A stretch of DNA of 62,813 bases, counting the filler, from Aduncisulcus paluster (taxonomy: Eukaryota), in assembly GCA_024181965.1 (NCBI GenBank). It is 7 parts of 7 records of this genome, joined end to end, with 100 filler letters (N's around TTAATTAATTAA, not from the genome) between each part and the next. Parts side by side here need not be neighbours in the genome. Positions count along the whole stretch, not along the records: positions 54,064 to 62,813 come from BQXS01000019.1; 6 more parts are not named here. One strand, written 5' to 3'. The translations under genes and the position numbers were made by a program. Shown piece after piece: positions 2,234 through 62,813 of this stretch (its first letter is position 1; each line of letters begins with the position of its first letter). The notes under the pieces are model-generated. The model was not told the origin of the DNA, ran no database searches, and was given only the letters and a program-made list of their open reading frames with translations.

Positions 2234-3286
2234 ATGAGTATATCCACAGATGTCGTTCAAATCGTGAGACCGGTGTTTATTTATGAGGCGGATGAATATT
2301 GTCTTCCAATTCCTAGGGATTCTCCCAATATTACGAAGCCATTCTTCCAATCTATCGAAGCCAGATATAAAAGCTCAGAAACAAGCGCTCCTGGATTTGA
2401 TGAGAGTTTAAATGCACAGAAGATGATGAAAGGGGAGAAGAATTATGGTTGTTTTACTCATATCTCCATTCCTTTCTCTCTATCTTCTTCGATCAAGGGT
2501 GCTTATATTGTTCTCCATCATTTAGATTATGATGACGTTCCGCCGCATCCATCCCACCTTATGTTTACCTTTTCTACATCAAAAGGAAAGAAAACATCCA
2601 AAAAATATGATTTTCCAGAAATTGAGACCGATTGTTGGTTCTTTCTTCCTGTTGATCTCTCTGATGTTGTTTTTTGCGAGATTACAGGGAAAGGAAAAGA
2701 CCAAGAGTATTTTCACATTAATTCCCTCGTTTTCTTTCGAGAAGAAACCCTTGAGGAAACTGTTGTTCGTGAAGCCAGAGAGAAACAATGGTTATCATGT
2801 GTACAGTTAAAATCTGAGTTTGTGAAAGAAGGAGATGAAGATCACATTCCTTTTCTTCTTGATGATCCAAAGGTTTTGAACCCTTCTTTATTCTCGATGG
2901 TAACTGCTAAGGATGACACGTATAGTAAGGAATCTGAGGAGTATGATCAGACTTCAGATGCACAAAAAATGTTAAAAGGGGAAGGTTATGTCTATTTATC
3001 CCATCTTTCTATCCCTTTCCCATCACCTAGTCCAATTAAAGGTGCTTATATGTGTGTGATTAAATATTATAGTTCTCCATCTCTTCTCTTCACTTTCACT
3101 GATGCATCTGGAAAGAAAACATCCAAGAAATTCGAATTCTCAGAGCCTAAATTTTTGAATGAATGGCACTTCCTTCCTATTGATTTGGATAATGTTGTAT
3201 TGTGTGAGATTGAAGGAAAAGGAACGTGGTATGAGAAACATAGGAGAGACTATAATATATCCTCCCTTGTTTTTCTCAAAATCTAA
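2234..3286 (+). CDS. Lineage-specific two-domain protein (tandem HLSIPF/KGAY/WHFLPIDL domains), paralog A
   Basis: Start placed at ATG 2234 (MSISTD) by analogy to the paralogs starting MSSSTD. Two internal copies of a ~165-aa domain. Clear paralogs at 9582-10625 and 55895-56998. Confidence 0.85.
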   Translation: MSISTDVVQIVRPVFIYEADEYCLPIPRDSPNITKPFFQSIEARYKSSETSAPGFDESLNAQKMMKGEKNYGCFTHISIPFSLSSSIKGAYIVLHHLDYDDVPPHPSHLMFTFSTSKGKKTSKKYDFPEIETDCWFFLPVDLSDVVFCEITGKGKDQEYFHINSLVFFREETLEETVVREAREKQWLSCVQLKSEFVKEGDEDHIPFLLDDPKVLNPSLFSMVTAKDDTYSKESEEYDQTSDAQKMLKGEGYVYLSHLSIPFPSPSPIKGAYMCVIKYYSSPSLLFTFTDASGKKTSKKFEFSEPKFLNEWHFLPIDLDNVVLCEIEGKGTWYEKHRRDYNISSLVFLKI

Positions 3287-9581: not shown

Positions 9582-10625
9582 TTATGGCACAGTAAATACG
9601 AGGGAGCAGATCCAGAAACAACGACTATGCTGAAAAGACCACATCCCTTTACCTTCAATCTCACACAATACAACATTACCCAAATCAATAGGAAGGAAGT
9701 GCCATTCATATTCATGTTTAGGTCTTGTGATGAATTCATACTTCTTGAATGTCTTCTTACCATCACAATCAGTGAAAGTGAAAAGAAGAGAGGGTGAACT
9801 ATAACACTTATTCACACAGATATAAGCACCTTTCATGGGACTAGGTGATGGGAAAGGGATGGAAAGATGGGATACTGATGTCTTATATTTCCCTTTTAAC
9901 ATTCCTTGGGCTTCACAACTCTTATCATAATATTTTTTCTCACAATACGAATCATCGTGGCCCTGAACCATTGAGAATGCGGGATTTAAAATCTTTGGAT
10001 TATCATGTAAAATGGGAATAGAATCTCTACCATAAGATTCCCGAACTTCTAGATGATATCCTTCCTGAACAAACTCAGGTTTTACAACAGTAGCTTCAGA
10101 CCAGAGTTTCTCTCTGGTTTCACGAGCTTTGATTTCTTCTCTACTAATGAAAACAAGGGAGGCGATTCCAAAATACTCTTTCTCTCTTCCTTTCCCTATA
10201 ATCTCACACAGAACAACATCAGGGAGATCAACAGGAAGGAAATACCAACTAAAATCATCAGGAAAATTGTATTTCTTGGCTGTTTTCACCCCCGTTGAAG
10301 ATGTTAAAGTGAAGATAAGATATTCAGGTCGATTCCAAGCACCACCAAGATAGATATAAGCCCCTTTCATTGGAGAAGATGAGGAAAAAGGAATGGAGAG
10401 ATGGGAATAGTATCCATCATTTTGCTCTCCTAACAATATCCCTTGTGCTTCCCAAGTTTGATCATACTCATCTTCATCGTCAATCTTTGCCCCCGCTTTG
10501 ATCGAAATAAAATCTACACACTTGATATTGGGGCTATCTCGAGGGATTGGACAGTGGTCGTAGTTTCCTCTATATAAAAACTCAGGTTTCACGATTTGTA
10601 TAGATCTATCGGTCGATGAACTCAT
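9582..10625 (-). CDS. Lineage-specific two-domain protein, paralog B
   Basis: ATG 10625 (MSSSTD). Two HLSIPF/KGAY/W.FLP.DL/VVLCEI domains. Long nucleotide identities with 55895-56998. Confidence 0.85.
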   Translation of the reverse strand: MSSSTDRSIQIVKPEFLYRGNYDHCPIPRDSPNIKCVDFISIKAGAKIDDEDEYDQTWEAQGILLGEQNDGYYSHLSIPFSSSSPMKGAYIYLGGAWNRPEYLIFTLTSSTGVKTAKKYNFPDDFSWYFLPVDLPDVVLCEIIGKGREKEYFGIASLVFISREEIKARETREKLWSEATVVKPEFVQEGYHLEVRESYGRDSIPILHDNPKILNPAFSMVQGHDDSYCEKKYYDKSCEAQGMLKGKYKTSVSHLSIPFPSPSPMKGAYICVNKCYSSPSLLFTFTDCDGKKTFKKYEFITRPKHEYEWHFLPIDLGNVVLCEIEGKGMWSFQHSRCFWICSLVFTVP

Positions 10626-11105
10626 TGTCAATGAAAAGAGAGTCGAATCTGAAAATATTAAAACAATTACAATGTAGTGAATATAATTGTATTTCTTTTA
10701 AAATATGAAAGCTGGAGACAAAAAAAATAAAAAAATTTAAAGTTTAAATCCGGATTTTAAACTCAACTTGATCCCGAACAACCTAAGTTACAAAACATGA
10801 TAAATTGCAGTAAAACTCTATGAATATCGTGAGGATCATCGACTTATTGGCAGAGAAGCTATACTTCTGGTTTTCTGATTTACTCTGTGTGTGAGTCCCG
10901 TGATGGATCTTTGAAGTTCATACCGTTAAACTTACAAATAAATCCTGCTATCACAATTATTTATAGATTTCTTGCCAAGAAAAAGATTGCTAAGCCTGTT
11001 GATTTTGTAAAAGAATAAAATACTCATTGATACTTACACAGCACAAATAAGAAAATATATATCTTAGAAATATTCAAAAAATTCAAGAAATAATCAAACA
11101 ATTTA

Positions 11106-22528: not shown

Positions 22529-23849
22529 ATCTTCATATGTCAATACATGGTATATTATTTCTTTCCGTATCAAAGGAGGAAAAGATTTTTGATGATCATC
22601 ATCGTCAGTGACGAACTTTCCAATCATCATGATTTAATAACAAATAAAAGTAAATTGGGTATCTCGTCGAATATTTTGTCAAATTTTCCTCCGTGGGAAA
22701 CTGATAAAAATTGACCTCCATTTGCGACATGATCGAGGTTTTTTTTCTCCGCTGAAACCATTGTTTTGTGAGTCATTAGTTCTCATAATTCAATTGGATT
22801 CCGCAATTTGATAATTCTTTGTCCGAATTCTTGATTTTTACATCTATTGCATCCATCCATCTCCATTTTACATTACATTTGACTTTTATCAAGAGAAGAA
22901 ATGTTTTCAAAACACTCGGGTCAAGCTCTTCTTTCAATTAAACCCGTTTCTGGTCCATCACATGGTAATATGAAGTGGGGAACTCCCAAATTAATCTCCA
23001 ATATTTTTGGTGTGGAGCATCCAAAAGTTGTCATCCCTTCTTCATGTCAATCTGATTTTGATGAAAAATTGACCTCCATTTGCGACATGATCGAGGTTTT
23101 TTTTCTCCGCTGAAACCATTGTTTTGTGAGTCATTAGTTCTCATAATTCAATTGGATTCCGCAATTTGATAATTCTTTGTCCGAATTCTTGATTTTTACA
23201 TCTATTGCATCCATCCATCTCCATTTTACATTACATTTGACTTTTATCAAGAGAAGAAATGTTTTCAAAACACTCGGGTCAAGCTCTTCTTTCAATTAAA
23301 CCCGTTTCATCTTCATATGTCAATACATGGTATATTATTTCTTTCCGTATCAAAGGAGGAAAAGATTTTTGATGATCATCATCGTCAGTGACGAACTTTC
23401 CAATCATCATGATTTAATAACAAATAAAAGTAAATTGGGTATCTCGTCGAATATTTTGTCAAATTTTCCTCCGTGGGAAACTGATAAAAATTGACCTCCA
23501 TTTGCGACATGATCGAGGTTTTTTTTCTCCGCTGAAACCATTGTTTTGTGAGTCATTAGTTCTCATAATTCAATTGGATTCCGCAATTTGATAATTCTTT
23601 GTCCGAATTCTTGATTTTTACATCTATTGCATCCATCCATCTCCATTTTACATTACATTTGACTTTTATCAAGAGAAGAAATGTTTTCAAAACACTCGGG
23701 TCAAGCTCTTCTTTCAATTAAACCCGTTTCTGGTCCATCACATGGTAATATGAAGTGGGGAACTCCCAAATTAATCTCCAATATTTTTGGTGTGGAGCAT
23801 CCAAAAGTTGTCATCCCTTCTTCATGTCAATCTGATTTTGATGAAAAAT
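22529..23849. repeat. Identical tandem re-duplications of the upstream region and 5' end of the 23681 gene (offsets 358 and 780 bp), probably artefactual
   Basis: 22529-23069 equals 23309-23849, and 22706-22950 recurs at 23064-23308. AAAAAT microhomology at a junction. Confidence 0.8.
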
Positions 23850-25562
23850 CTGATCTAAAGAGTTCTGTAGACTCTGTTGAGGGCAATGCCTTTCTTAATT
23901 TTAAGACTCTTTCGTTTTCTTTCTCCAAAGCTACATTTATAGAGTCCGTTCAGTTCAAAACATCGACAAATCCATTCCCTAAAGATCTTTTGTTTATATT
24001 TTATTCAACAAAGAAGGAGGAAGTGTGTTGTCGATTCCTTAATGATGATTATCAAGCCTTCGATCTCCCTATTCAAATTTCTGGAGTTGTGAAATGTAAT
24101 GTTCAATGTCTTTGTCAGAAATCAGGGAATGAAAGCACTTTTAAATTAGATGGCGTGAGGTTTATTATGGGTAATGATCCTTCTCAAATATCTGTTATCA
24201 AACCCATCTCTCCTCCACCCGAAAAAATGCTTTTCCCTGCCAAACCCATTAAAGAAGGCGATGAATGTGAACCAATTATCCCATATACATCTCCAAAGCT
24301 CGTGGTCCGTGCCTTTCGCGAAGAAGATGGGTCATTCTTGCCCGGTTCCACTCGAGTCACTCTGTATGAGTGTATTGAAGGTAATTCTCGTGTGTCCTTT
24401 TCCAATATTCAGGTTCCATTTGCCTTTCCACAGAATCTATCTTCCATTTTTATTTGCTCGAATGGGTTCAGGAGGCAACCAAAGGAACTTGTTCTAAATT
24501 TTCACAATGTCACTGGTGAAATTATAACAAAAATATTTACGTTTGAGAAACAATATGGATACTATTGGTTTGAGCTTTATGTGGATGTGGATAGTGTCAT
24601 TAAGTCTGAAATTGAGTGTCTGTCGAGTTGGGATGGAGATTCTTATTGTCAAATCGATTCCTTGCAATTCGCCTTGGCTGAACAAGATGCCGCACGTCAA
24701 TCGCTGATCCATGCAGATAAACAATCTGAGAGAGATGAGAGGACAGTTCGTGTCCGTTTTGACAGAGAGGAATTATTCTCCTGGTCTTCCCCATCCTCTT
24801 TCACTCATGTTGTTGATTCTGAGCATTATATTGATGTGTCTAGACTCTCTGGTACCTTTGCTGGACTCAGTGATATCGATATGCTCTCAAAGTGTGTCAA
24901 TCAGCTTTATTTCTTATCGTTTTACTCTCTTTTCATTCCATTTGTTCACTCCCAAGACATTAAAGGGGTTCGTTTGTTCATTGACAGTGCTAAAAACTCT
25001 CCTCTAAAGAGTTCTGTAGACTCTGTTGAGGNNNNNNNNNNNNNNNNNNNNCACTCATGTTGTTGATTCTGAGCATTATATTGATGTGTCTAGACTCTCT
25101 GGTACCTTTGCTGGACTCAGTGATATCGATATGCTCTCAAAGTGTGTCAATCAGCTTTATTTCTTATCGTTTTACTCTCTTTTCATTCCATTTGTTCACT
25201 CCCAAGACATTAAAGGGGTTCGTTTGTTCATTGACAGTGCTAAAAACTCTCCCAAACACATGGATGTTAATGTAACAACCAGTATTGGAGTCACTATGAA
25301 GAAAGAGTTCTCTGTGGATTCTTCGTTTGACCATGGATGGTTATTCCTTCCTATTGATGTTAAGGAGGTGGTTAGTTTTGAAATATCTTCAGTAGATTCG
25401 ATAAAGGGCACTAAATGGTCTGTTATTGGCGGTTTGAAAGTCGTGGTCGATCATGATCAATCCATTATGGAATCATTTCAAGTTCAGAAATTATCCGAAC
25501 TTTATCGATTGTTCTCACAATATTGTTCTCTTTGGCAGATGCCTGCTATAGCAAATGAATAG
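23681..25562 (+). CDS. Three-domain divergent member of the lineage-specific beta-domain family (~543 aa after removing the 250-bp duplication)
   Basis: Three repeats such as 'SFYSLFIPF...IKGVRLFID...SPKHMDV...KKEF...GWLFLPIDVKEVVSFEI...IGGLKV' and 'YWFELYVDVDSVIKSEIEC...IDSLQF'. Confidence 0.75.
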
Positions 25563-33256: not shown

Positions 33257-34055
33257 CTTTCAACGTTTGAGGTCTTTTAACCTTCTTGAGATTATCCAAT
33301 TTTTCAGGAGATATCCTTCGACCCTGCTCATCCACTAGAAATCCCAGATATTTCACCTGTTTTACCCCAAAATTACATTTCTTGTAATTCAATGCTAGGT
33401 TGTAGTTTCCAAACCTGTCCAATACCATTTTAAGGTTCTCTAGCATTTCGTTTTCTGTTTTACCAAACACAAGTACATCATCTAAATAAATAAAGCAGCA
33501 GCGACCGATCAAATCTAGAAATATCTTATTCATTGACCGCTGAAAGTGACCAGGTGCAGTCTTTACGCCGAATGGCATTCTATTCCATTCAAACAACCCA
33601 AAAGGTGTATTGAAAGCTAGCACTTTCCTCACACTTTCCTCGACAGCGACCTGATAATACCCACTTTTTAAATCAAGTGTAGTGAATACTTTCATACCTC
33701 CCAGAGCTGCAAACATCTCGTCCATTCTCGGAATGGGAAACATATCATCCACTATGTACCTGTTAATGAGTCTGTAGTCTACACATACTCGTGTGCCCCC
33801 CCATCCTTCTTATCAACTAATACCAAAGGTGAGGCTAACGCACTTTTTGAATCTCTTATGAAACCCTTTTCTTTCAATTCTGTTATCTGGTCCTTCACTT
33901 CCAGAAATAAACCTTGTGGTATGGAACGTCTCTTCTGTGCTATGGGCTTTGTTCCATCTTTCAATCTCAATGTATACTCCTCGACACAAGCTGGTTCCAA
34001 TCTGTTCACCCTACTTTCATAAGTCTTAATTATATCAAATAGGGCGTCTTTAAAT
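33257..34055 (-). mobile_element. Ty3/Gypsy LTR-retrotransposon reverse transcriptase fragment with one frameshift
   Basis: 'PIAQKRRSIP...GFIRDSKSALASPLVLVDKKDGG' / frameshift in a G7 run near 33796-33802 / 'TRVCVDYRLIN...FPIPRMDE...FTTLDLKSGYYQV...GLFEWNRMPFGVKTAPGHFQRSM...FIYLDDVLVFG...VKYLGF'. Confidence 0.93.
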
Positions 34056-41400: not shown

Positions 41401-44400
41401 CCTGCATTATCAAATAGGCGTGGTTATCTTGCAGATCAAAATTATTGTAAGCTTCCCGATGGGTATGCGTACGCTAAGCCCTCACTTCTTAAGAATGAGA
41501 TTGGAACATATGATCTTCAAACTTCAACAGAATATATCACCGGTGCAGCATGTTCATGGCTTGCTCTTCCTGAATATGATTCTGAGACAGGTGAACTATT
41601 GCAATGTCATGTCCTTCACGATGAGAATTTACGAACTAAGGTTGGTGAACTTCTTGTGGATATTGCTGCCGATGATGAGAATTTTACCTTCACTCTTGGC
41701 GATACCATCAACGTTTCACATCTTAGACGTTTGACAGGAACTTCATCAGAGCCTCTTGATCTGAGTAACCTTGGAATTGAGAGTGTTNNNNNNNNNNNNN
41801 NNNNNNNAACTATTGCAATGTCATGTCCTTCACGATGAGAATTTACGAACTAAGGTTGGTGAACTTCTTGTGGATATTGCTGCCGATGATGAGAATTTTA
41901 CCTTCACTCTTGGCGATACCATCAACGTTTCACATCTTAGACGTTTGACAGGAACTTCATCAGAGCCTCTTGATCTGAGTAACCTTGGAATTGAGAGTGT
42001 TCGTGGATTAGAGTATGTTTCTAAGGCCAGTTATATCAATCTTAGCCATAACAAGATCTCAGATGTCAGTCCTCTTCTAACCCTTCCCTCTCTGACATCT
42101 CTTGATCTGAGTTATAATTCCATATGTTTCCCGTTGTATTACTCTTCTCTGGCTGATCCATCTGAATCGGATTATGTGGCCGCTTTAAAGGCTGAATTTG
42201 TTGAATATACTACAGGGAGTGCGAGCAATTTGACCATTTCCATATCTGACCAATCGTGTGATGCATCATGTTCTGGAACCTCATCGATGGCAAGTGGCGA
42301 CCATGCTGTGTGTCATAATTCTTTCGGATCCACATTCACGGAAGAGTGTCGGATTGATCATTATCTAAGTTCTGTGTCTGGAACATGCATACGTGATTAT
42401 CTTGGTGTATGTTTCACCTGTGACAAATTGAATCGACAATGTCTGATTGATGATAGTTCTTCCATTTATGATCCCCTCCAAGAGTGTGGTGAGTGTCGGA
42501 CATGGTGGTATGGTGTTGACTGTGATCAACCTTGTCCCTTCGATCCTTTCGATGAGGATCAATTCGGTGAGGTTGAATCCACAGGAATGTGTGGTGTTAA
42601 CCATTCCATCACTGCTTCCCATGGTGTTTGTCTGGAAGATGATCACATATGCCAATGTGAGACGGATTACACTGGGTCTGCATGTGAATACGTGAAGTTT
42701 GACGATGAGAATCTGGAAGCGTCATTATGTCGAATCGTTCGAGATGATCCCGATGCTGTGTGCGATGGTGTTGCTCCATTTGAAATGCAACCCTTAAACG
42801 GTATTCTTGATCTGAGCAATAATGATCTTTCTGCTGGATTGAAAGGTCTTGAGTTTGCTATCAACATTTCAGGATTGGACTTAAGTTATAATCCTTTGGT
42901 TGATGAAACCGATGTATTATTTATTTCCACTTTTCTTATAGCCAATGAATCCTTCGATACATTGGATTTGAGTGGAACTGGTGTATCGGATATCTTATCA
43001 ACATCCTTTGGCGATTTATTCTCTACCATCACTTCTTTTGCTATCAGCGATTGTTCCCTGACAGATGTCTCTCAATTGACATCTTTCATAAATTTAACAT
43101 CATTGGGATTGTCCGATGTGACACAGTTAGATGATCAAGAATCTGGCCATTCTCTCACTGAAGATGACATTGGATCATGGCTCTCTTCAATGGAATCTCT
43201 TGCAACTCTTGACATTAGCAACAATAATATCACCTCACTGCGTTTTCTCCTTGAGATGAGCACTCAGCTGGAGGAGTTAAATATCTCGGGGAACAATGTA
43301 TCCGATCTTTCCCCGTTGTACAGTTTCTCGATGCTTCAATCTCTCTCTGTGATTGATACTCGAGTTGTTCAAGGTACCACTTCGACGGCGGATATCGTTG
43401 CAAAATTCGTGGGTCTTGAAGAGAGTGTTACTCTTGCAGAAGTCAACATTGAAACGTCATATGAGACACCATCTGCTTGTTCTTACCTCAATTTAGTTGA
43501 TGCCATTTCTTTGAATATGGTTTGTCTTGAAACATTCCCTGGTTCTGACACATGGTATCCTGTGTGTGCAAGCAATTCGTTCGCCAAATACTCTGACGCT
43601 TCGACGTTCTCGTGCACACAGACGAACGATGTTGACACTGGCACGAACTGTATTGGAGGGTGTGCTTATGGCCAAGAGTGTCGACAGGTTGTGTTGTCTA
43701 CTGTTGGCAGTGATCTTGTGAGTGGGGAATGTATTGATGTTGTGGTCGACCCTGCTCTCCATTCGTGTGTTGCCGACATGTTTCCCTCGTCCTCTCCCCA
43801 TGTTCTCACTGTGTATGATTCCTCTTCCGATTCCACGTCTGTGCTCTTCAGTGTTGCCTCGTTGAAGACCCTTGAGACTGTCTCCTCTGAACCTGCTGGC
43901 GATCCATCCCCGATCCTGTCGTGTTCTGCACAGGATGTATCGGATCTATCTGGAATCGAACATATTGGAGGGATTACTATTATTGATGTGAGTTATAACT
44001 TTCTTGGGCACAATACATCAAATTTATTTTTGCTATCGAATTTGTCAAATTTAGTTGAAATTAATCTGAGTGGAACCGATATAAATGTGATCAATTCTCT
44101 ATCTCACATCCCAAAATCAAGTTTAACCACGTTGAAGATGGATTCTCTTGATGTTCGTGCGGATACAGATTTCTCCCAGTTCTCTGATGTTACTGCCCTC
44201 TCTTTGCGAGATAACTCGTCTTTCACTCTCTCTTCTTCAACATCTTGTTATTTATCTTCATTCTGTCTGCCATCCTCACTCTTGTCCCTTGACATCAGTG
44301 GGTGTTCATCCTTCACTGATTTATCTTCCCTTATTCCATTGTCCTCATCATTGATCTCTCTGGGTGCATCCAACATTGGGCTCACTGATTCTTCACTGTT

Positions 44401-46893
44401 CGATGTTTCATCTCTATCCTCTCTTCAGTCATTAGATCTATCAAACAATTCTCTGACAGACATCTCTCTGCTGTTCCAGTTGTCCGAGTTGACTTCCTTG
44501 GACGTGTCTCAAAACAAGCTTTGTAGAGTGACAGATGAGATATTTACACCATTCTTCACTCTTTCTGACATCATCACAATCACGACTAGCAATGAGTCAA
44601 CTTCCACTGCGATTGACCAAGATGATGCTTATTGCGGGTATTGTTCCGGTTCAACTCCTTCTGTCGATCCTTCTTCTAATGTTGTGTGCAAAGAGGTGTG
44701 GAGTGGCGAGTACCATACGGATTGTGCTATCTTCAGCTATCGTGATTACTCCAACTCTGGGTCTGGGTCTGGGTCTGGGTCTGGCTCTGAACCGTTAACA
44801 TGTGTGAACTTTGGATCTGAAGTTGACACTTCTTCCTTAACGTGCTTGTCTGGCATCGAGTCCAATCCCAACACTCAGTGCATGGGTGTCTACAACGAGT
44901 CCAATGCATCCGTTTCTATCGAGAGTGGATGTGTTGAAGGGTGGTATGGCGATGAGTGTCTGGATGAATGTCCATTCCAAGGCACTGAGGAATGCGTTCA
45001 TTATTCCAACCAACAACAATGTGGAGGATCTGAGTATGGAGCATGTGACAGTTCAACACATACATGTGATTGCTCTCTGTCTGGCTTCCATGGTGATTCG
45101 TGTCAATATGTCACATTCGCTGATTCCCACATTCTCTCTGCTCTGTGTTCACTTGTTGATGGTCATGACTCCACATGTGACGATCAGAGTGAGGGTGATC
45201 TGACAGAGAGTGATCTTGCAGGGATTACATTGTCTGCTGGTGAATGTCTTGATCTGTCCAGTCTTGATATCACTAATTTTTCTGGACTTGAATATCTTAC
45301 GAACATCTCATGCATCGATCTGAGTGGAAACACTTCCTTGAGTGATATCTCTGTTCTTGACTCCTTGAGTGAGTTTAACCATCTGACTGCCCTGAACATC
45401 TCCGATACAGCCGTGGATGACTTGACCCAGATTTTGTCTTTGTCTGGTGTTCTGACCTCTTTGAATGTTAGTAACAACCCAAGTATCTCAGTCTCTGATA
45501 TNNNNNNNNNNNNNNNNNNNNTCACTAATTTTTCTGGACTTGAATATCTTACGAACATCTCATGCATCGATCTGAGTGGAAACACTTCCTTGAGTGATAT
45601 CTCTGTTCTTGACTCCTTGAGTGAGTTTAACCATCTGACTGCCCTGAACATCTCCGATACAGCCGTGGATGACTTGACCCAGATTTTGTCTTTGTCTGGT
45701 GTTCTGACCTCTTTGAATGTTAGTAACAACCCAAGTATCTCAGTCTCTGATATTGCATCTATTTTTGGATCATCCTTGACTGAGCTTGATGTGAGTGGCA
45801 TGGAGTTGGATGATCTGTCGTGGCTCAATGAATATGATTCTAGTTCTGGTTCTGTCTCAATCCTGTTCCCGATGTTAGAGTATCTGGATGTGAGTGATAA
45901 CAACATCTCTGATCCATCTCCATTGCTTTCTCTTTCATCGACTCTCACCACACTCGAACTAAGTGGGAACAATATCAGTGGAATGGATAATATGGAGGAA
46001 GTGGAATTGTTCATGTCTCACTTCCCACTGTTGATAAGTGATGAGTCTACCATCTTCGCTGGGAATGAACCTTTGTGTGATGATGATTCCATCTCACTCT
46101 CATCCAATATCGTCTGCTCTGAGCTCTGGCCTGGCAAGTATTCTGCAACATGTTGTTCATCATGTTACACCGATGTGAGTTCATCCTCATTATCGTGTGT
46201 GCTGATCGATGATGATGAAACTTCTGCATCCTTGTATGCTGTGTGCTCTAGTCTCTCGGGTACCAACAAGAAGTGCATTGGAATAGGCTCTGATGTGTCT
46301 GTGGATGGAATATCCATTGTGTGTTCTGAAGGATGGTATGGTGATGATTGTCTGTCCGAATGTTCTGTTGATGACTATGGGTATGAATGTGGGAATTATG
46401 ATGGAACCGATAATAATCCTTGTGACTCTGAAACACACACATGCACCTGCTCTTCATCTTCATCGTCACCTCTCATGACTGGTGACCTGTGTGAGATTGA
46501 GAGTGGAGTGACACTACTGTCTTCCCTTGGGATGGATGTTGCCCTCGTTGAAGCTATCTGTGAGTCCATGTATGTTGATGATGCAGATGTCCAATCGTTA
46601 TGTTCTTCTTCTTCTGCTGAAAACATTCTCTCCTCACTGACTGTGGATGATCTCTCCACCATCACATCTCTCACCATCCCAACCACCGTGGCTTCCCTCT
46701 CAGGGCTTGAATATGCCGAGCACCTTGAGATCCTTTCGTTTGATCCTGGAAACACTCTCATCTCTGATCTATCACCCATTGCATCCTTATCCTCGTTGTA
46801 TGTGCTCGAGCTTGATTCCCTCGAAAACATGGATGTATCACTTCTGAGCACATTGACGGATGCTGTCGGTGCTCTGAAGATGGATCTTGAGTC
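38476..46893 (+). CDS. Giant LRR and cysteine-rich EGF-like surface/secreted protein (>2,600 aa, 3'-truncated)
   Basis: Hydrophobic N-terminal segment. Repeated caps 'IPD..L...C.C' and 'F.D..L...LC', internalin-like LRRs 'L..LDLS.N.ISD.SPL', and EGF-like 'C..GWYG..C...C' and 'C.C...F.G..C' modules. Removing the 214-bp and 252-bp gap duplications gives one frame. Confidence 0.88.
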
Positions 46894-46993
46894 NNNNNNN
46901 NNNNNNNNNNNNNNNNNNNNNNNNNNNNNNNNNNNNNTTAATTAATTAANNNNNNNNNNNNNNNNNNNNNNNNNNNNNNNNNNNNNNNNNNNN

Positions 46994-55549: not shown

Positions 55550-55894
55550 GTTTTAATGTATGGAGAAAACAAACCCGGAACCTTATTTTTCTATTTGAAA
55601 TTGGATAAATAATCTATAATTTCAATATGTAATAATTCAATTTTCTCCGGAATTCGTTAATTTCATTATTTATTTGCATATTACAAAAGTGTTGATGACG
55701 TTGAGTCAACAACTTGTTGAACATTGAGTCAATGTCACATTGACCGTCAAAGTACAACGTGACGTTGTTGATTGAGAAGGAATCATCGAGGATCAACTTG
55801 ATCGAAGGAGTGTGCAACTTGTTCAACAATCAACCATCAACTTCAAGCTTGAAATGAAATCTTCTCTCAATAGGAAACTTTCCTCTCTGCACAG

Positions 55895-56998
55895 TTAAAA
55901 ACTATTCCACGGAAGAAGACATAATCGTTCAACAATAATTTCCTCTGGAATGGCAGTAAAAACAAGGGAGTAGATGTAGAAATATCGACTATTCTTATCA
56001 CACCACCTTCCTTTCCCTTCAATTTCGCACAATACAACATTACACAAATCAATAGGAAGGAAGTGCCATTCAAATATACGTTCAGGTTGTGTGAATTCAT
56101 ACTTCTTGGATGTCTTCTTACCATCACAATCAGTGAAAGTGAAGAGAAGAGAGGGTGAACTCCAATTCTTCTCCACACATATATAAGCACCTTTCATTGG
56201 ACTTGATGAGAAAGGGATAGAAAGATGGGATAAGGGTACATCACATTCCCCTTTTAACATTTTTTGTGCTTTTGAACTTCTATCATAAAACTCAGATTCC
56301 TTACCATAAAAATCATCCTTGCACTTAACCATTGAGAACCAAGGATTTATAAGATGTGGATCATCATGTGGAATGGGAATAGATTTTCTACCTTTTGATT
56401 CTTTATCTCCTTCCTTAACAAACTCTGGTTTCACAACTGGAGCTTCAGACCATAGTTTCTCTCTGGCTTCACGAGATTTGATTTCTTCAGGAGTTTCTTC
56501 TCTACTAATGAAAACAAGGGAGTAGATTTGAAAACACTCTTCCTTTCTTCCTTTCCCTGTAATCTCACACAGAACAACATCAGGGAGATCAACAGGAAGG
56601 AAATACCAATAATAGCCTATAAATTCATGAAATTCGCATTTCTTGAATGTTTTCTCACCCTTTGAAGATGTGAGAGTGAAGATAAGGTGTGATGGAGGTG
56701 AAGAATTACCATGTAGACAGAAATAAGCCCCTTTCATTGGGGAAGATGAAGAGAAAGGAATGGAGATATGGGTAAATTGTCCATAATTACCCCCTCCTTT
56801 CATCATCCTTTGTGCCCAAGAACTCTGATCGTACCCATATTCACCTTCTTCCTTGGTTATATTAATTGCTTTGATAGTTGGAGACTCTGCACCCGTAATA
56901 TTGGGGGCATCTCCAGGAACCGGACAGCAACTCCCCGATCCTTCGTGAACAAACACAGGCTCCACAGTTTGAATAATAGCATCTGTGGATGAACTCAT
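55895..56998 (-). CDS. Lineage-specific two-domain protein, paralog C
   Basis: MSSSTD start, two family domains, and a C-terminal extension 'PEEIIVERLCLLPW'. Confidence 0.88.
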   Translation of the reverse strand: MSSSTDAIIQTVEPVFVHEGSGSCCPVPGDAPNITGAESPTIKAINITKEEGEYGYDQSSWAQRMMKGGGNYGQFTHISIPFSSSSPMKGAYFCLHGNSSPPSHLIFTLTSSKGEKTFKKCEFHEFIGYYWYFLPVDLPDVVLCEITGKGRKEECFQIYSLVFISREETPEEIKSREAREKLWSEAPVVKPEFVKEGDKESKGRKSIPIPHDDPHLINPWFSMVKCKDDFYGKESEFYDRSSKAQKMLKGECDVPLSHLSIPFSSSPMKGAYICVEKNWSSPSLLFTFTDCDGKKTSKKYEFTQPERIFEWHFLPIDLCNVVLCEIEGKGRWCDKNSRYFYIYSLVFTAIPEEIIVERLCLLPWNSF

Positions 56999-57813
56999 TT
57001 GAAATAGCGATAGAATATCTTATCTAAAAAAAATAAAACCAAGCAGAATAATATTAGTATTTGTAAACAAACAGAATAATTGCGAATTTCAAGGAGAACG
57101 ATCCGAGAAACAAAGACAAAACTAATAAAACGAAAAAGAAGCAACCACACAGCACAATATAGTTAGTATAATTGAATGAATCCAATTGAAATATTTCTTA
57201 ATATACATTTAATAAAAGATATGACATATAGTAAACATACAATTTGTTTGAAGGCCAAGAAACCGAAAAAATCGAGGACTGAACATCAACCCTTCAATAG
57301 ATAAGATTGGAAATTTAAAAAAACGCATATAAACGAGTCCAATGCCGATAAATGCTAAAAACATGTTTTATTTTCATTTCCATGCTTATTCTCGATAATA
57401 TCGACGATATTATCAAGTCGATATCTCAGGCTTTTGGGACCCTTCAGGACTGGATATAGTTCTATTTCACGTGTTAAGAACATTTATGAACGATTTCAAT
57501 GCTATTCAATAACATGGATATATTTCCATTTCATTTCTATCCTTATCCTTGCCTTTCTGTTCATTTTCACTTGCTTTTGCTTACAATCAAAAATATCAAG
57601 AACTCGGAATACGATGGTATACATATGTCCGTATACTGCTACGAATCTAATCCCCTGATGCTTCATGGAACACGACATTTCCTCCCCGAATTCCAACTCC
57701 AACTCCAACGCTCCAATGCCAGATCCTGATCATCTGCTTCATTTAATACTGAGATTTGTGCTATTTCACCCTAGCTTGACAATGTGACAATCATGGAAAG
57801 TGATTTCGTAGGT

Positions 57814-58203: not shown

Positions 58204-61098
58204 ATGTGTTTTGATAGCGATTTCTCGCTCACGTCATTTTCAATGACTTCAAGATATGATCATAGATTTGGATCGCATCTTCAGAAGTCAATCACTCTCA
58301 ATGTTGATATGCAAGATGATCCGTCAGCATCTATCCACCCCACCTCTGAAGATCCATATCAACAAATAGAAGATTCGTTGGAATTTGAATGTATTGAATT
58401 TGAAAAATCTTTGATTAGCAAACCAAAGGACTTGGAGGTTATTTCCTCGACGGTTAAAAATTTTGCTAGATCTTTCCCCAAATCCGATTGGTTAATGAAT
58501 CAACATATTACCGATATATTATTGGGTAAAATATCTCCAGTATCGCGGTTTCATCTTTATTCAATGCATTCATTTGCAAGATGCTTATTTTTCAATGGTT
58601 GTGAATTGCTTACCCATTTCCAGGGTTTCAATTGTTGTCATATGCTATTATACAAATCTATGAAATCGTTGCAATTCCCAACAAAATGCATAGAGGATTT
58701 TCAAAAACATTGGACTGTAATATGTAAAAATTTGCACTATATACATAGAATACCCCTATTTTACCGATATCAATTCCATAATGATATTTTAATTGAACAA
58801 ATTTGTCGTTTAAAATCCTTTTTGCAAATTCCTTCATCGATGGGTCCCATTCACCAGTTATTGCGAATGGAGGAAAGAAATTCACTCTATTTCAACTATT
58901 CAAACGCCTTGTGTGGAGTATACCTTGATTCTCCTGATGATGTTCCCATTGATGAAACTGATTGGATCAGGTCAATGTTCCCCCATCTCTCACTACGTCC
59001 TCTATTCGCCTTTGCTGCGAGTTCTCAGATATTCCTCGTGTATCCCCTGTGGTCCTTGGAAAAGAGCGCATTTTCTCCCCATATTAAGAATCCAGATCTA
59101 CGTCCTTCATATATTCATACACTTTTCAACGCTGACTCTTTGTCATCCAGACTTGTCACATGTGTTCTCTTCAATGAAATCGAAGGAGCAAGTTCTTTAT
59201 GTCATGTTTCCACAGATTTATGTAAAAAATTTAAGATTCTTCCATATTCTATCGAAGTTTCGACTAAATCTTTCGTTGCTGATGGTGAACACCCGAATTT
59301 GGCTGAATATTTATCTGTTGAGTCAGGAATGACCAGTATTGATGAAGTTGAGGCAGATTTTTCAACTGTAAGTTCACCTTTAGACTCTTTTAAACCCGAT
59401 ATTTCAGAGGATCTACATGCTGATACGTCAATATCACCCTCGAAACAATCTGAGCCGACTTTCACCCATAGGGATTCTCATTCAGATGATTCATCTATAT
59501 CTGATGCAGATAGAGATATTGAGCCCATTTCTATTAATTTTGAAGAGCTAATTTCTCTCAAGGAATCTCTTAAAGATATGAAGGATTCATTCATTTCTTC
59601 ATGTCCTGACTGGGATTCCATTTCCACTCTCCATGAATTAGATATCACTCTTGATGAGGAATTGCATGATCTTCGGAGAATTTATGATGACATGGAAGGA
59701 GAAGAAAGACATTATAAGAGAGCAGAAAAGAAAATGATGAAAAGGGAATCAAAATTGAAAAAGAAAGAAGATGAATATATTAAACAAACAAAACATCTTG
59801 ATTCAATAACAAAAGATGAAAAACAATTGGATGAAAAGTTTCGAAAGCTTAGAATCATCCAACATCGTTTACTGCAACAAACGGCAAGCTTGGCGGTGAT
59901 ATATGACGAACTAACTGTAAATGATTGGGCCACTCAAATTGCTTCCCGTCAACTTGGCCATTTTGAAGTCAAAGTTGAACTCCAATGTATGCAGAAAGCT
60001 CGAAAAGAAATGAGTCTTGTAAAGGTGATTGATGGAGGTGAGCAGGTCAAATATGCCTTGAAGGCAGCTGAAAAGAAGAAAAAGGTGCAAAACAGGCATA
60101 TTCGACAAATAGATATAAAAAAACAGGAACAAGATATCTTATCATTGCAAATTCAAATGGATGAAAAGCAGATTTCTCTCTTGGCAAAACAAAAAGAAGA
60201 AGAAATTGAATTGGATCGTGTTTTATTGGAAAAAAAGGCACTTAACCAAAAGAAAGCTCTTGCCATTGAGCTTAGAAAGTGTGGAAATGTTATTATTCCG
60301 GATTTTTTCACGAAGTTAGAACGATGTCATTTCCAGCAAGAAGGTAGTTCAGGAAAGAAAATGAAAGCTCTTAAAGTTAAAAATTTTTCTGATTGTACTG
60401 TCCGGTTGAGTGAAGCGGAATTAGATGCATATATTCGTCCTCTTTTCATAAGGTCTGACTCAAACCCTCTTGGATATGCTCGTGATCAAAAAGAAAAGAA
60501 AACTCCATATACGAAATTTAAGGTAAAAAGTGCATTGAGAATTGAAAATCCATATTTATTCAAGCAATACTGTGATTCTAGAGCTGCAATTCGACAGAAA
60601 TATGGTGATTATCTTATCCCTTCTTCTGGAAAAAATCCTCTTAATGTGATATCTTTTGGGAAGTCAAAGGTTCACTTATGTACTGATATTGATGAACATT
60701 TGATGTTTCATGGGTCTTCATACCAAATAATGAAGAAAATTGCCGTAAGTGGATTTGATTTTCGGGAAAGCAGGAGCGATGGTTCTGCCTTCGGAAAAGC
60801 GAATTACTTTGCTGAAGTCATTGAAAAAGCGGATCAATATTCTAGTCCAAAGGGTTCTATTGATAATAAGATATACACTGTTTTACTTGCATTGAATATT
60901 GTTGGTCCGATGCCCAATGTTCTTAAAGTGAGGGAAACAAGACCTGGTTCCACTCGGCCACCAATTATTCCGGGAAGAAAAGGGAAAGGAAGATTATACA
61001 ATAGTGTTGTTGGTCAATTTACTTATCGAGAATTCGTTCAATATGAGTTGGTATCGTCTTATCCATTGTTCATTGTATTCTATAAGAGAAAACCTTAA
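58204..61098 (+). CDS. PARP-family ADP-ribosyltransferase: unknown N-terminus, coiled coil, C-terminal catalytic domain
   Basis: 'RIENPYLFKQY', 'EHLMFHGS', 'IAVSGFD', 'FGKANYFAE...KADQYS', 'YREFVQYE...YPLFIVFY'. The H-Y-E triad is present. Confidence 0.85.
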   Translation: MCFDSDFSLTSFSMTSRYDHRFGSHLQKSITLNVDMQDDPSASIHPTSEDPYQQIEDSLEFECIEFEKSLISKPKDLEVISSTVKNFARSFPKSDWLMNQHITDILLGKISPVSRFHLYSMHSFARCLFFNGCELLTHFQGFNCCHMLLYKSMKSLQFPTKCIEDFQKHWTVICKNLHYIHRIPLFYRYQFHNDILIEQICRLKSFLQIPSSMGPIHQLLRMEERNSLYFNYSNALCGVYLDSPDDVPIDETDWIRSMFPHLSLRPLFAFAASSQIFLVYPLWSLEKSAFSPHIKNPDLRPSYIHTLFNADSLSSRLVTCVLFNEIEGASSLCHVSTDLCKKFKILPYSIEVSTKSFVADGEHPNLAEYLSVESGMTSIDEVEADFSTVSSPLDSFKPDISEDLHADTSISPSKQSEPTFTHRDSHSDDSSISDADRDIEPISINFEELISLKESLKDMKDSFISSCPDWDSISTLHELDITLDEELHDLRRIYDDMEGEERHYKRAEKKMMKRESKLKKKEDEYIKQTKHLDSITKDEKQLDEKFRKLRIIQHRLLQQTASLAVIYDELTVNDWATQIASRQLGHFEVKVELQCMQKARKEMSLVKVIDGGEQVKYALKAAEKKKKVQNRHIRQIDIKKQEQDILSLQIQMDEKQISLLAKQKEEEIELDRVLLEKKALNQKKALAIELRKCGNVIIPDFFTKLERCHFQQEGSSGKKMKALKVKNFSDCTVRLSEAELDAYIRPLFIRSDSNPLGYARDQKEKKTPYTKFKVKSALRIENPYLFKQYCDSRAAIRQKYGDYLIPSSGKNPLNVISFGKSKVHLCTDIDEHLMFHGSSYQIMKKIAVSGFDFRESRSDGSAFGKANYFAEVIEKADQYSSPKGSIDNKIYTVLLALNIVGPMPNVLKVRETRPGSTRPPIIPGRKGKGRLYNSVVGQFTYREFVQYELVSSYPLFIVFYKRKP

Positions 61099-61129: not shown

Positions 61130-62813
61130 TTACCAGCTCTTTGAACCCATAATATCGTCAAATCTCGATGATATCGACACCTTATCTTGAAATTTCTTAT
61201 GCGACGAATCCATAAATAAGGCCGAACAATTACCGATGAATTTCATTTCCGATAGATCAACGTAATCTCTCCCTGTGCTTTGAGCACAACTCATTGTCTT
61301 GAAATCAGGAGAAGACAGAGCAAAGGATATCAAACCTCCAAGAGCTGGATCAATGCTTTCTAATAGACCCTTCAAAGAATCATCAGCACCATCCTCAATT
61401 TCTTCTTCCTCTTTCTCTTCCTCCTTCTTTTTGTCTCCTTTCTTTCTCATCATCTCGTTCNNNNNNNNNNNNNNNNNNNNCCTTATCTTGAAATTTCTTA
61501 TGCGACGAATCCATAAATAAGGCCGAACAATTACCGATGAATTTCATTTCCGATAGATCAACGTAATCTCTCCCTGTGCTTTGAGCACAACTCATTGTCT
61601 TGAAATCAGGAGAAGACAGAGCAAAGGATATCAAACCTCCAAGAGCTGGATCAATGCTTTCTAATAGACCCTTCAAAGAATCATCAGCACCATCCTCAAT
61701 TTCTTCTTCCTCTTTCTCTTCCTCCTTCTTTTTGTCTCCTTTCTTTCTCATCATCTCGTTCAGTTCACTCCAACCTTCCTCGACAGAGTCTAATTCATTC
61801 ATCGCAGCAGTCAAAACACTGAGATAAATCGGACAAATGAATAAATGTGTCTTGGACGAAGTGATGGTTGATGCTTCATCACAATCATATACATGGTGTG
61901 TGTCTGCATGGTGTGTGTCTGGATGGTGTGATGGAGAGGAAGGAGAGAGAGTAATGGGATCAGTTCCAACTGTAACAAGATCACGCCATTGTCCTTTTCT
62001 ATCAGGCCCAGAACGACCATAAAACTTAAATCCAGCATCTTTATGCTCAGTTTCATCACATGGGGGACAAGAACAGGACCATTCCTGGTGCATGTGTCCA
62101 GCATGCCAGTCGGAAATGCACGGATAACACCTGAAATGAGAGAGTAAAGATGTTAACACTGGGGATCCGAGACCATTCGAAGGTACAGAATCACCTCGAC
62201 CACTGTGCATCTTCTGCCGTTTCTGAACAGATTCAATATATTCCTTCTCTTTCAAAGCATCAACTTGAAGATGTTTTTGAAGCTTAGATATGTCACCGAA
62301 GGTTGAAATTGTTCGAACCCAATCATGAGAGAGGAAAATAGATCTCTTTGGAGGACATAAAGATCGAATTTTGGAGAATAAAGGATTATCCAAAGAAGAT
62401 TCATCATCTGTCCATTCATTTAACTTCGAGTACATGCAACACATCATGTCAGTATCAAGTTTACGATGTTGGTACACACCTTTGAGTTGGGATACACCTC
62501 GTAGGGGCACAGATTCTTTATGGGGCGACGATAGAATAGAATGACCAATTCCACTTATCCCACTCACACGTAAAAAGTCAACACTTACAACATCTTTCCC
62601 TTTTCTTACCTCTTTCATGAGAATAACAGATCCACTAAAACCCAAATAATAGATATTCGGAGCAATCCAACCACCATATGGAGTTTGAAGTAAAAATTCA
62701 CTGCATTCGTGATTACCCGATATTAAAATTGTTAAATATGGTGCAACTTGAGTTCCATCTGAATATTTGTGAAAGGATCCCATGGTACGATATCTAGGAG
62801 GACACGCAAGAGA
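61130..62813 (-). CDS. DBR1: RNA lariat debranching enzyme, 5'-truncated by the window edge; 301-bp gap duplication near the 3' end
   Basis: 'LACPPRYRTMGSFHKYSDG..VAPYLTILISGNHE...YGGWIAPNIYYLG', 'SGISGI', 'FLSHDW', 'LGSP', 'WHAGHMH'. Confidence 0.92.

Follow-up and report, generated by a model that had tools for sequence, protein, structure and literature searches.

Hypervariable sites on a conserved two-domain scaffold: a candidate germline repertoire of binding proteins in Aduncisulcus paluster

Three paralogous genes of the free-living anaerobic flagellate Aduncisulcus paluster, designated A, B and C and found in one stretch of joined genomic DNA (62,813 nucleotides in its full length; hereafter the window), encode proteins in which single residues change radically inside near-identical surroundings, and the question arises what kind of protein and what kind of evolution would produce such a pattern. 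The initial annotation had based this observation on the strings FHINS/FGIAS/FQIYS, YNISS/FWICS/FYIYS, CVIKYYSSPS/CVNKCYSSPS/CVEKNWSSPS, GKGTWYEK/GKGMWSFQ/GKGRWCDK and GEGYVYLSH/GKYKTSVSH/GECDVPLSH, all of which are indeed present in A/B/C. Gene C (P0001) is an intronless open reading frame of 367 aa and a canonical two-domain member of its family (family HMM score 683.7, E 2.6e-207). The genes of the window that belong to the family or are related to it are as follows:

55895..56998, minus strand: gene C, by family HMM match and ORF reading
2237..3286, plus strand: paralog A, the most divergent among A/B/C, with the C-terminal tail unrecognisable
9582..10631, minus strand: paralog B (P0119), in which a TAA at the family's Glu351 position removes the constant tail
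23663..25559, plus strand: distant relative with 3 family-profile matches in 2 ORFs split by an N run (E 1e-15, 5.6e-11)

A search among proteins of 201-643 aa returned 168 family proteins at E<=1e-3, and the 120 that were listed comprise 118 from A. paluster and the window's own 2. The profile search of 1.84 billion representatives resulted in 165 clusters (50% identity), 110 of them with E<=1e-30, and each of 20 clusters sampled over the whole score range was from A. paluster, while the JGI metagenomes scanned with the family alignment gave 120 pattern matches, none of which was confirmed by tblastn. On these sequence comparisons the family appears so far to be specific to A. paluster. It is an orphan family, annotated by no sequence database, and no description of it was found in the literature, including the main text of the genome announcement (PMC9933649). 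The fragmented state of the draft assembly is probably due in part to this family.

Some relatives are considerably longer. The giant proteins P0121, P0124 and P0126 (2162-2714 aa) possess 4-5 exact domain motifs each, with neither head nor tail motifs in their interior. P0122 (3335 aa) lacks a tail and has a single head-like match inside; P0003 is a clean three-domain protein. The explanation of the giants as merged gene models was partly rejected, because internal head and tail motifs are nearly absent and P0003 is clean; by the same evidence the number of domains truly varies. The gene models of longer relatives also include predicted fusions with Pkinase, PARP or thioredoxin domains, with no E3 domains.

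The AlphaFold (AF2) model of gene C (pLDDT 91.2, pTM 0.85) is characterized by two galactose-binding-like beta-sandwiches joined by a helix, and the protein can be divided into the following parts:

56501..56977, minus strand: domain 1, residues 8-166, predicted galactose-binding-like beta-sandwich with a fold match to IFT25 (2yc2_A; Z 11.3, rmsd 2.6, 118 aligned, model 32-166)
56444..56491, minus strand: conserved linker helix, residues 170-185 (model and alignment)
55946..56440, minus strand: domain 2, residues 187-351, predicted galactose-binding-like beta-sandwich containing the positions first described, with a match to APC10/Doc1 (1gqp_A; Z 12.1, rmsd 3.1, 148 aligned, model 187-351)
55898..55945, minus strand: C-terminal helix and tail, a constant part (alignment and model)

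The constant parts of the family are the linker, a CCPIP motif and the C-terminal ...ERLSLLPWK tail, whose last nine residues are exact in 38 of the 75 canonical members, with close variants in more. The tail is possibly a docking motif; since A and B are without it, either it is dispensable or these two copies are decaying. The conserved start MSSSTD is preceded by an in-frame stop 7 codons before. The upstream regions of A, B and C gave no mutual alignment, so no shared promoter was found among these three.

Membership in the galactose-binding domain-like superfamily is evident at the level of fold, with Z 10-13.3 over the 50 listed entries, where single-domain matches extend over 113-151 aligned residues at rmsd 2.2-4.5, and with Z>=8 in 129 of 981 chains. 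The top structural match is the tandem CBM32 of ZmpB (7jnb; Z 13.3, Foldseek E 3.7e-9, probability 1.00), further matches include neuropilin b1b2 and factor V/VIII C1-C2, and many sugar-bound CBM32 and F-type lectin modules occur at Z 10-11; most of the nearest solved structures by Z are modules that bind sugar (CBM32 in complex with Gal or GalNAc, F-type lectin). The likeness to lectins proposed earlier is thereby borne out for the fold (Z 10-13), but APC10 and IFT25 share this fold and are not lectins, so the match proves no function. At the sequence level the Pfam scan of gene C at E<=1 found no F5/8 type C or CBM32 domain and one chance-level match to an unrelated family, the profile search of PDB sequences gave a best E of 0.92 followed by 1.4, and the best ESM Atlas score for domain 2 was 0.86, under the lead threshold of 0.9.

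More definite assignments were rejected. An APC10/DOC domain is limited to fold likeness (1gqp, Z 12.1), because PF03256 is unmatched by Pfam and the longer relatives are without E3 domains. The fucose-binding motif of F-type lectins, H-x24-R-x-D/E-x4-R/K (PMC5712786), was found by regular expression in 0 of 120 family proteins. The bicupin matches of Foldseek (oxalate decarboxylase, vicilins) had TM 0.10-0.14 and rmsd 21-26 and are regarded as two-barrel look-alikes.

Canonical members are mostly without a hydrophobic N-terminus or membrane-like segment (KD(19) >=1.6 in 3 of 75, hydrophobic N-terminal window in 4 of 75), and as signal peptide and membrane segment are lacking the proteins are taken to act inside the cell. 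The Cys content is about 11 per protein.

The variability was estimated in an alignment of 77 family members (76 distinct) over 367 columns. Entropy was <1 bit in 230 columns and >=2.8 bits in 27, each of the latter containing 13-17 residue types; the columns with >=2.3 bits (43, or 12% of all) were defined as hypervariable. Thus the radically variable positions in a near-identical framework, first seen in three sequences, form a pattern far beyond chance. In gene C it is distributed as follows:

56930..56938, minus strand: hypervariable patch, residues 21-23, 2.8-3.7 bits (alignment entropy)
56807..56839, minus strand: segment 54-64, hypervariable at 54, 55, 61 and 64, with 61/64 on the same face of helix 59-67 (alignment and model)
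56777..56791, minus strand: alternating hypervariable 70/72/74 with conserved N71 and G73 between them (alignment)
56699..56713, minus strand: hypervariable loop 96-100 (alignment and model)
56609..56620, minus strand: hypervariable loop 127-130 (alignment and model)
56522..56545, minus strand: segment 152-159, hypervariable at 152, 155, 157 and 159, with invariant F156 and I158, entering the last strand of domain 1
56393..56404, minus strand: hypervariable 199 and 202, corresponding to 21-23 in domain 1 (alignment)
56261..56290, minus strand: segment 237-246, hypervariable at 237 and 243, moderately variable at 246 (2.2 bits; alignment and model)
56234..56245, minus strand: hypervariable 252, 253 and 255 flanking conserved V254 (GECDVPLSH; alignment)
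56162..56173, minus strand: hypervariable loop 276-279 (CVEKNWSSPS; alignment)
56075..56077, minus strand: hypervariable residue 308 (alignment)
55997..56008, minus strand: hypervariable 331, 333 and 334 flanking invariant W332 (GKGRWCDK; alignment)
55970..55984, minus strand: hypervariable 339/341/343 in alternation with conserved F340 and I342 (FYIYS), last strand of domain 2 (alignment and model)

The two domains vary at corresponding positions: of the equivalent columns, 13 are hypervariable in the two domains alike, 10 just in domain 1 and 2 just in domain 2, while 137 are not hypervariable in either (Fisher p 2e-11, Spearman 0.63). At hypervariable columns the enrichment over other columns is 4.0x for Y, 3.4x for N, 3.1x for W, 2.2x for H, 2.1x for D and 1.7x for C, which agrees with the Y/W/C/H/N enrichment suggested initially, and P, V, T, I and L are depleted; this composition resembles that of binding sites. 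Between paralogs the hypervariable patches are almost uncorrelated. In 312 pairs with 93-96% scaffold identity the identity at hypervariable sites averages 22%, while 19% is expected by chance, the residue set is unique per domain in 76 of 76 proteins, and in the 12 closest pairs the hypervariable 12% of columns account for 22-48% of all differences.

The arrangement of these sites was only partly as first described. The i/i+2 alternation holds in 70/72/74, 155/157/159, 253/255, 331/333 and 339/341/343 but not elsewhere, where contiguous loops such as 21-23, 96-100 and 276-279 occur; counted over the 43 sites, lag 1 occurs in 13 pairs, lag 2 in 15 and lag 3 in 9. In DSSP order the hypervariable positions lie in alternate inter-strand loops, the same in both domains. 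Instead of the single sheet face proposed originally, they more likely sit in loops and at strand termini at a single end of each sandwich, a placement derived from the strand order and from reading 19-22-residue DSSP 'strands' as hairpins.

Codon tests were based on the coding DNA of the three genes A/B/C, with site classes set from 73 other members. Omega was 0.22 for scaffold, 1.24 for intermediate and 2.92 for hypervariable codons, and the likelihood-ratio test of the latter against 1 gave 2dlnL 31.2 and p 2e-8. In the closest pair, B-C, pN at hypervariable codons was 0.60 versus pS 0.295 at other codons, and dN(hypervariable)/dS(other codons) reached 3.2 (bootstrap CI 2.1-5.3). Because the test takes its synonymous rate from other codons, a higher local mutation rate at the hypervariable codons, or gene conversion or codon bias that depresses the synonymous rate, would give the same outcome as selection. 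The two older pairs, A-B and A-C, are saturated, with ratios of 1.5 (CI 0.96-2.5) and 1.1 (CI 0.68-1.9) that are indistinguishable from 1. Codons differing between B and C at 2-3 nucleotides constitute 21 of 36 hypervariable and 14 of 221 scaffold codons, and the apparent B-C pS is 0.42 inside hypervariable codons versus 0.24 in the scaffold, a value unreliable for multiply hit codons. On three genes, therefore, the initial suggestion of diversifying selection is supported, namely a multigene family with omega >1 at defined sites and purifying selection elsewhere.

The identity of B and C flanking DNA over 20+ nt was also confirmed, exact nucleotide runs between variable codons being 50, 31, 34 and 28 nt, and framework dS among A/B/C was 0.3-0.8. 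Gene conversion, raised in the initial annotation as a matter to be checked, was indicated by permutation of polymorphic sites in the three sequences for B-C (p 0.028) but not for A-C (0.12) or A-B (0.77), a signal too weak to call.

According to these data we regard as reasonably probable, taken as a whole, a germline repertoire of two-headed putative binding proteins under diversifying selection, which probably act inside the cell. Each member, with two galactose-binding-like beta-sandwich domains and a helix, would be a two-headed binder, in each domain of which a rigid, near-invariant scaffold would display five or six short loops or strand ends, different in every paralog, and these may together make up a paratope-like site with many Tyr, Trp, Asn, Asp, His and Cys residues. 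The diversity would be germline-encoded, one specificity pair per gene, with the variable codons sustained by diversifying selection and the scaffold fixed by purifying selection and possibly some gene conversion. The linker, the CCPIP motif and the ...ERLSLLPWK tail may link every variant to one common partner or fate, and the proteins would serve as intracellular recognition adaptors for many different or fast-changing ligands, for example those that prey bacteria, parasites or viruses present as proteins or glycans.

A quite improbable reading, in our estimate, is neutral drift: in an old family the variable positions, as unconstrained surface residues, would have reached saturation without being selected for diversity or forming a binding repertoire. 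It would agree with the intervals of the older pairs, with the near-neutral intermediate class, with the codon evidence coming from three genes only, and with the near-uncorrelated patches, which saturation would produce as well; however, omega equal to 1 is rejected for the hypervariable class, the ratio of the youngest pair lies above 1 over its whole interval, the sites are already random at 93-96% scaffold identity, the residue mix, 4x in Y and 3x in W, is unlike that of neutral surface loops, and both domains are hit at the same positions. It would be still less probable that the excess change reflects mutation supply and not selection alone, through a dedicated site-directed hypermutation or short templated conversion that draws on the paralog pool. 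Such a mechanism would account for 2-3-nucleotide changes adjoining exact runs of 28-50 nt, for about 3 replacements per hypervariable codon at dS ~0.3, very high for ordinary substitution, for the raised B-C pS in these codons, unreliable as it is when they are multiply hit, and for identical multi-residue patches shared by otherwise unrelated paralogs beyond the expectation of independent columns (patch 276-279 is identical in 19 pairs versus 2.5 expected). Against it, blastn in the window recovers no template-like extra copy besides A, B and C and the matches between their own domains, and the gene-conversion signal is weak. A diversity-generating retroelement target was rejected, as the 63-kb window contains no template copy, its single reverse transcriptase, an RVT_1 fragment of retroelement type (33201-33752), lies 22 kb off, and about 29% of hypervariable residues are E/K/W/Q/M, outside the NNY codons of such retroelements.

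Where the proteins would act is a separate matter. The same repertoire may be used outside the cell as lectins or adhesins, which leave it by unconventional release or extrusive organelles and capture or sort prey bacteria by surface glycans, and this we consider unlikely. The predominance of sugar-binding modules among the nearest structures speaks for such use, multivalent glycan binding would suit tandem domains, and A. paluster is a bacterivore cultured with food bacteria (PMC9933649); but most canonical members are without signal peptide or membrane segment, the in-frame stop lies 7 codons ahead of the conserved start, neither the F-type fucose motif nor a Pfam lectin or CBM match is present, and the Cys content comes with no sign of the secretory route. 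A bolder version of the intracellular reading is an anticipatory recognition system in a free-living protist, with many hundreds of two-headed, antibody-like cytosolic receptors. Their paratope codons would be diversified by a dedicated mechanism, beyond what mutation and selection of the usual kind provide, and their expression, regulated and perhaps restricted, and a shared effector would be made possible by the conserved upstream region and the constant tail; we give this version very little credence.

If the intracellular germline repertoire is true, about 1% or more of A. paluster genes would constitute a recognition repertoire, and the way in which a bacterivorous single cell distinguishes prey, parasites and viruses would become testable. 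The scaffold would also be of interest as a small, stable two-domain protein in which nature already tolerates some 20 randomised positions in each domain. Animals, plants, fungi and parasites are known to encode repertoires of variable binding sites in their genes; to our knowledge, such repertoires are hardly known in free-living heterotrophic protists, and we know of none on this scaffold in a cytosolic-looking protein.

Several known systems share separate features with the family. F-type lectins (eel fucolectin isoforms, oyster sperm bindin) belong to the same jelly-roll superfamily (2j1t, 2j1r, 4gwj; Z 10.3-10.6) and their domains are often in tandem too, but the A. paluster proteins are without the fucose motif (0/120), the Pfam match and the signal peptide, and they are encoded by hundreds of genes, both domains being diversified at about 20 sites each, while F-type lectins have a few. 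The CBM32 and F5/8 type C (discoidin) domains, which bind ligand by loops at one sandwich end, are the best structural matches, with undetectable sequence similarity; they are not known to us as hypervariable multigene repertoires, and the A. paluster proteins, in contrast to them, look cytosolic. APC10/DOC and IFT25 are cytosolic proteins that share the fold of the A. paluster domains: APC10 (1gqp) aligns with 148 residues of domain 2 at Z 12.1, IFT25 reaches Z 11.3, and the DOC domains found in CUL7, HERC2 and HECTD3 give Z 10-11. APC10 recognizes degrons by the equivalent loop end; unlike the present family, APC10/DOC and IFT25 are conserved single-copy genes without hypervariable loops, and canonical A. 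paluster members possess neither a Pfam ANAPC10 match nor a ubiquitin-ligase domain.

The MATH-BTB and F-box adaptors of nematodes and plants and the TRIM5 SPRY loops represent expanded cytosolic beta-sandwich families, large and specific to their lineages, in which positive selection falls mainly on the substrate-binding site and for which foreign proteins have been proposed as targets. In these a BTB, F-box or RING domain couples binding to ubiquitination, whereas in the A. paluster family the short C-terminal tail is the sole constant candidate for such a coupling element.

The nearest parallel to the presumed evolution of the family is offered, in our opinion, by the fungal HNWD/NLR WD40 repeats (het-d, het-e). 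According to the published account, these are near-identical repeats of intracellular recognition proteins with four codons each under positive diversifying selection, the selected codons lying on the interaction surface and the framework being in concerted evolution (PMC1805685). The HNWD proteins have a beta-propeller and a NACHT effector domain, and their diversity is among repeats and alleles of about 10 genes, whereas in A. paluster it extends across hundreds of dispersed paralogs, whose framework, given the dS of 0.3-0.8, is not strongly homogenised.

The window is eukaryotic in character, with about 38% G+C and few introns, and besides gene C it carries two full paralogs and one more distant relative.

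Members of the gene C family in the window
55895-56998, minus strand: gene C, 367 aa
2237-3286, plus strand: paralog A, full
9582-10631, minus strand: paralog B, full
23663-25559, plus strand: distant three-domain relative, three family-profile matches (E 1e-15 and 5.6e-11)

The distant relative is made of two ORFs broken by a run of N, and a Pfam scan of it gave no match. The members are scattered among ordinary genes, and their neighbours in the window include a Roc-like GTPase, a PARP-domain protein and a Vps4-like ATPase. Adjoining gene C, at 58204-61098 (plus strand), lies a gene for a 964-aa protein whose C-terminal part is a PARP catalytic domain (E 1.6e-10) and whose long middle resembles a coiled coil.

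With gene C as query 168 proteins of 201-643 aa were found at E<=1e-3, and among the 120 matches listed 118 belonged to Aduncisulcus paluster, a free-living fornicate flagellate, the other two being the window's own proteins. A 76-member profile recovered 165 clusters at 50% identity from 1.84 billion representative proteins, 110 of them at E<=1e-30, and all 20 clusters sampled across the score range came from A. paluster. None of 120 pattern matches in JGI metagenome contigs was confirmed, and neither the Pfam families nor, by profile search, the PDB chains showed a sequence relation to gene C. Within the databases searched, the family thus appears restricted to the A. paluster lineage.

Over gene C, contigs of the DNA sequencing run X1 gave a summed depth of 0.04-3.1 million versus 1,210 at 55700-55801, a single-copy stretch just outside the 3' flank; this suggests hundreds to more than 1,000 copies of the conserved segments, although summed depth is not copy number and gives only a rough indication. 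The X1 depth was 176,000-463,000 in the 5' flank upstream of the start codon (57000-57200) and 57,000-87,000 just after the stop (55802-55903), falling to 1,210 farther out, and because it stays high on both sides the flanks seem to be common to many paralogs. Upstream of their genes, A, B and C showed no alignment to one another. Upstream of the gene C start the depth drops much faster in a second run, X2, the kind of which is a guess, than in X1.

The variability was described on a MAFFT alignment of 77 rows, made up of 75 members from the database (335-400 aa), A from the window and a second copy of B; 76 of the sequences are distinct. Column entropy is below 1 bit in 230 of 367 columns, while 43 columns reach 2.3 bits or more, designated here as hypervariable, and 27 reach at least 2.8 bits, with 13-17 kinds of residue.

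Hypervariable sites in gene C numbering
Domain 1: 21-23, 54/55/61/64, 70/72/74, 96-100, 127/129/130, 152/155/157/159
Domain 2: 199/202, 237/243, 252/253/255, 276-279, 308, 319, 331/333/334, 339/341/343
Near the N-terminus: columns 7 and 49, which reach 2.3 bits outside any patch

In consensus sequence the two domains share 56% identity, and the hypervariable columns of one match those of the other: 13 are hypervariable in both domains, 10 in domain 1 alone, 2 in domain 2 alone and 137 in neither (Fisher p 2e-11, Spearman 0.63). The structure therefore determines which positions vary. The initial annotation had proposed an enrichment in Y/W/C/H/N, and this holds across the family: Y is enriched 4.0x, N 3.4x, W 3.1x, H 2.2x and C 1.7x, together with D (2.1x), and P, V, T, I and L are depleted, so that in composition the sites resemble protein binding sites. 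In 312 pairs with 93-96% scaffold identity the hypervariable identity averages 22%, the expectation from column frequencies being 19%. The residue set in each domain is unique for every one of the 76 proteins, correlation between patches is almost nil (r at most 0.13), and in the 12 closest pairs 22-48% of all differences fall in the hypervariable sites, which make up 12% of columns.

A confident AlphaFold2 model of gene C was obtained with the family alignment (pLDDT 91.2, pTM 0.85).

Architecture of the gene C protein in the AlphaFold2 model
Residues 8-166: beta-sandwich domain 1
Residues 170-185: linker helix
Residues 187-351: beta-sandwich domain 2
Residues 352-360: C-terminal helix

As modelled, both domains fall in the galactose-binding-domain-like superfamily (Foldseek, VIA). 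The structural matches include the tandem CBM32 of ZmpB (7jnb, Z 13.3), APC10/Doc1 on domain 2 (1gqp, Z 12.1, 148 residues aligned, rmsd 3.1), IFT25 (Z 11.3) and, at Z 10-11, many sugar-bound CBM32 modules, the DOC domains of CUL7, HERC2 and HECTD3, muskelin, and F-type lectin modules; with scores only about 1-2 Z units apart, no branch can be named as the nearest. In DSSP order one hypervariable patch leads into the first core strand and another into the last strand, with the others in every second inter-strand loop, and the intervening turns are conserved (SSSP-MKG, SSKGEK / CDGKK, LPD / LxN). Because the strands are antiparallel and the patches lie in alternate loops, we infer that in the model the variable patches gather at one end of each sandwich, a placement that requires reading DSSP "strands" of 19-22 residues as hairpins. 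They are so read since residues 32-166 match almost without gaps the 132-residue IFT25 chain (2yc2_A), the fold of which we take to have nine strands. CBM32, discoidin and F-type lectin domains bind their ligands at this same sandwich end.

Selection on codons was estimated from three genes only (A, B and C), with site classes taken from the 73 other members so that A, B and C had no part in defining the sites on which they were tested. In a custom three-taxon codon model (MG94-type, shared branch lengths and kappa, one omega per class) omega was 0.22 for scaffold, 1.24 for intermediate and 2.92 for hypervariable codons, and fixing the latter at 1 was rejected (2dlnL 31.2, p 2e-8), in agreement with the diversifying selection suggested from the window alone. 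Counting in the youngest pair, B-C, agrees with the model: pN is 0.60 at hypervariable codons versus a pS of 0.295 at all other codons, a ratio of 3.2 (bootstrap CI 2.1-5.3), while the older pairs are saturated and uninformative at 1.5 (CI 0.96-2.5) and 1.1 (CI 0.68-1.9). Between B and C 21 of 36 hypervariable codons differ by two or three nucleotides, with exact runs of 50, 31, 34 and 28 nt between such codons. The synonymous rate used as reference was taken from other codons, so a local rise in mutation would mimic selection, and gene conversion or codon bias lowering the synonymous rate would inflate the hypervariable ratio; a permutation test for conversion tracts was weak for B-C (p 0.028) and not significant for the other pairs. 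All paralog peptides quoted in the initial annotation were found in the window translations.

The constant parts include the start MSSSTD, present in most canonical members (exact in 26 of 75), and the last nine residues ERLSLLPWK (exact in 38 of 75 and closely similar in further members). The proteins are read from sequence as cytosolic, because only 3 of 75 canonical members have a stretch whose hydrophobicity would suffice for a membrane helix and 4 of 75 a hydrophobic N-terminal window, and because the gene C start is preceded, 7 codons upstream, by an in-frame stop. In B a TAA (9582-9590 region) stands at the family's Glu351, and since the codons beyond it still resemble the family tail (EII...), the truncation, with loss of the conserved ...LLPWK tail, appears recent; in A the C-terminal tail is unrecognisable. 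The domain number differs between members. P0003 is a clean three-domain protein; in P0121, P0124 and P0126 (2162-2714 aa) the core motif recurs exactly four to five times, and head or tail motifs are missing from the interior; P0122 (3335 aa) carries four core motifs and a single head-like match in its interior, and lacks a tail. Family domains share gene models with protein kinase, PARP or thioredoxin domains in P0121, P0122, P0251, P0056 and P0059, with Pkinase matches in P0121 and P0122, a PARP match in P0122 and a thioredoxin domain in P0056, a separate 479-aa member; of the giants, P0121 and P0122 were the two covered by the Pfam scan. If real and not merged gene models, these fusions would tie the variable heads to signalling enzymes.

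The evidence is best explained by a repertoire of two-headed, presumably binding proteins encoded in the germline, in which the scaffold would be kept by purifying selection and the loop codons diversified by selection, acting probably inside the cell, where the constant parts may couple all variants to a shared partner. The hypervariable sites, with their omega above 1 and their particular residue composition, speak against neutrally drifting loops. The same repertoire could act outside the cell as lectins for prey, as the sugar-binding structural neighbours would suggest, but no secretion signal was found in the family and lectin motifs are absent.

Programmed diversification of the hypervariable codons is a possible but unlikely alternative: no template copy occurs within the window, NNY codons could not encode 29% of the hypervariable residues, and the sole reverse transcriptase in the window is a retroelement fragment. 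This RVT_1 fragment (E 8.7e-31; 33201-33752, minus strand) is interrupted by an N run and adjoined by an ORF without Pfam match (34487-35413, plus strand); it is probably a retroelement remnant unlinked to the family.

Further runs of N occur at about 19500, 25040, 30500, 41790, 45700, 51000, 61480 and elsewhere, several with the same sequence on both sides and a translation repeated around the X run (for example in ORFs 18496-21009, 41771-46945 and 61395-62783). They look like unmerged scaffolding overlaps, which makes ORF lengths across them unreliable. At 38476-46945 (plus strand) two very long ORFs of 1120 and 1724 aa, the first with a hydrophobic N-terminus, contain in translation many leucine-rich-repeat-like "LDLSxN" units and Cys-rich EGF-like stretches, a candidate second recognition or surface family.

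No description of the family was found in the literature searched, and the text of the genome announcement (PMC9933649) is silent on it. It would be a new family, orphan in sequence, in an organism and a probable cell compartment where it was not expected, and it follows a known evolutionary logic. In fold and logic the F-type lectins come closest among known systems; in them, as outlined in PMC5712786, loops termed CDRs surround the site and oyster bindin has eight pocket sites under positive selection; their defining motif was found in 0 of the 120 family proteins listed. In evolutionary mode the closest parallel is the fungal HNWD WD40 repeats, described in PMC1805685 as a nearly identical framework with four selected codons per repeat.
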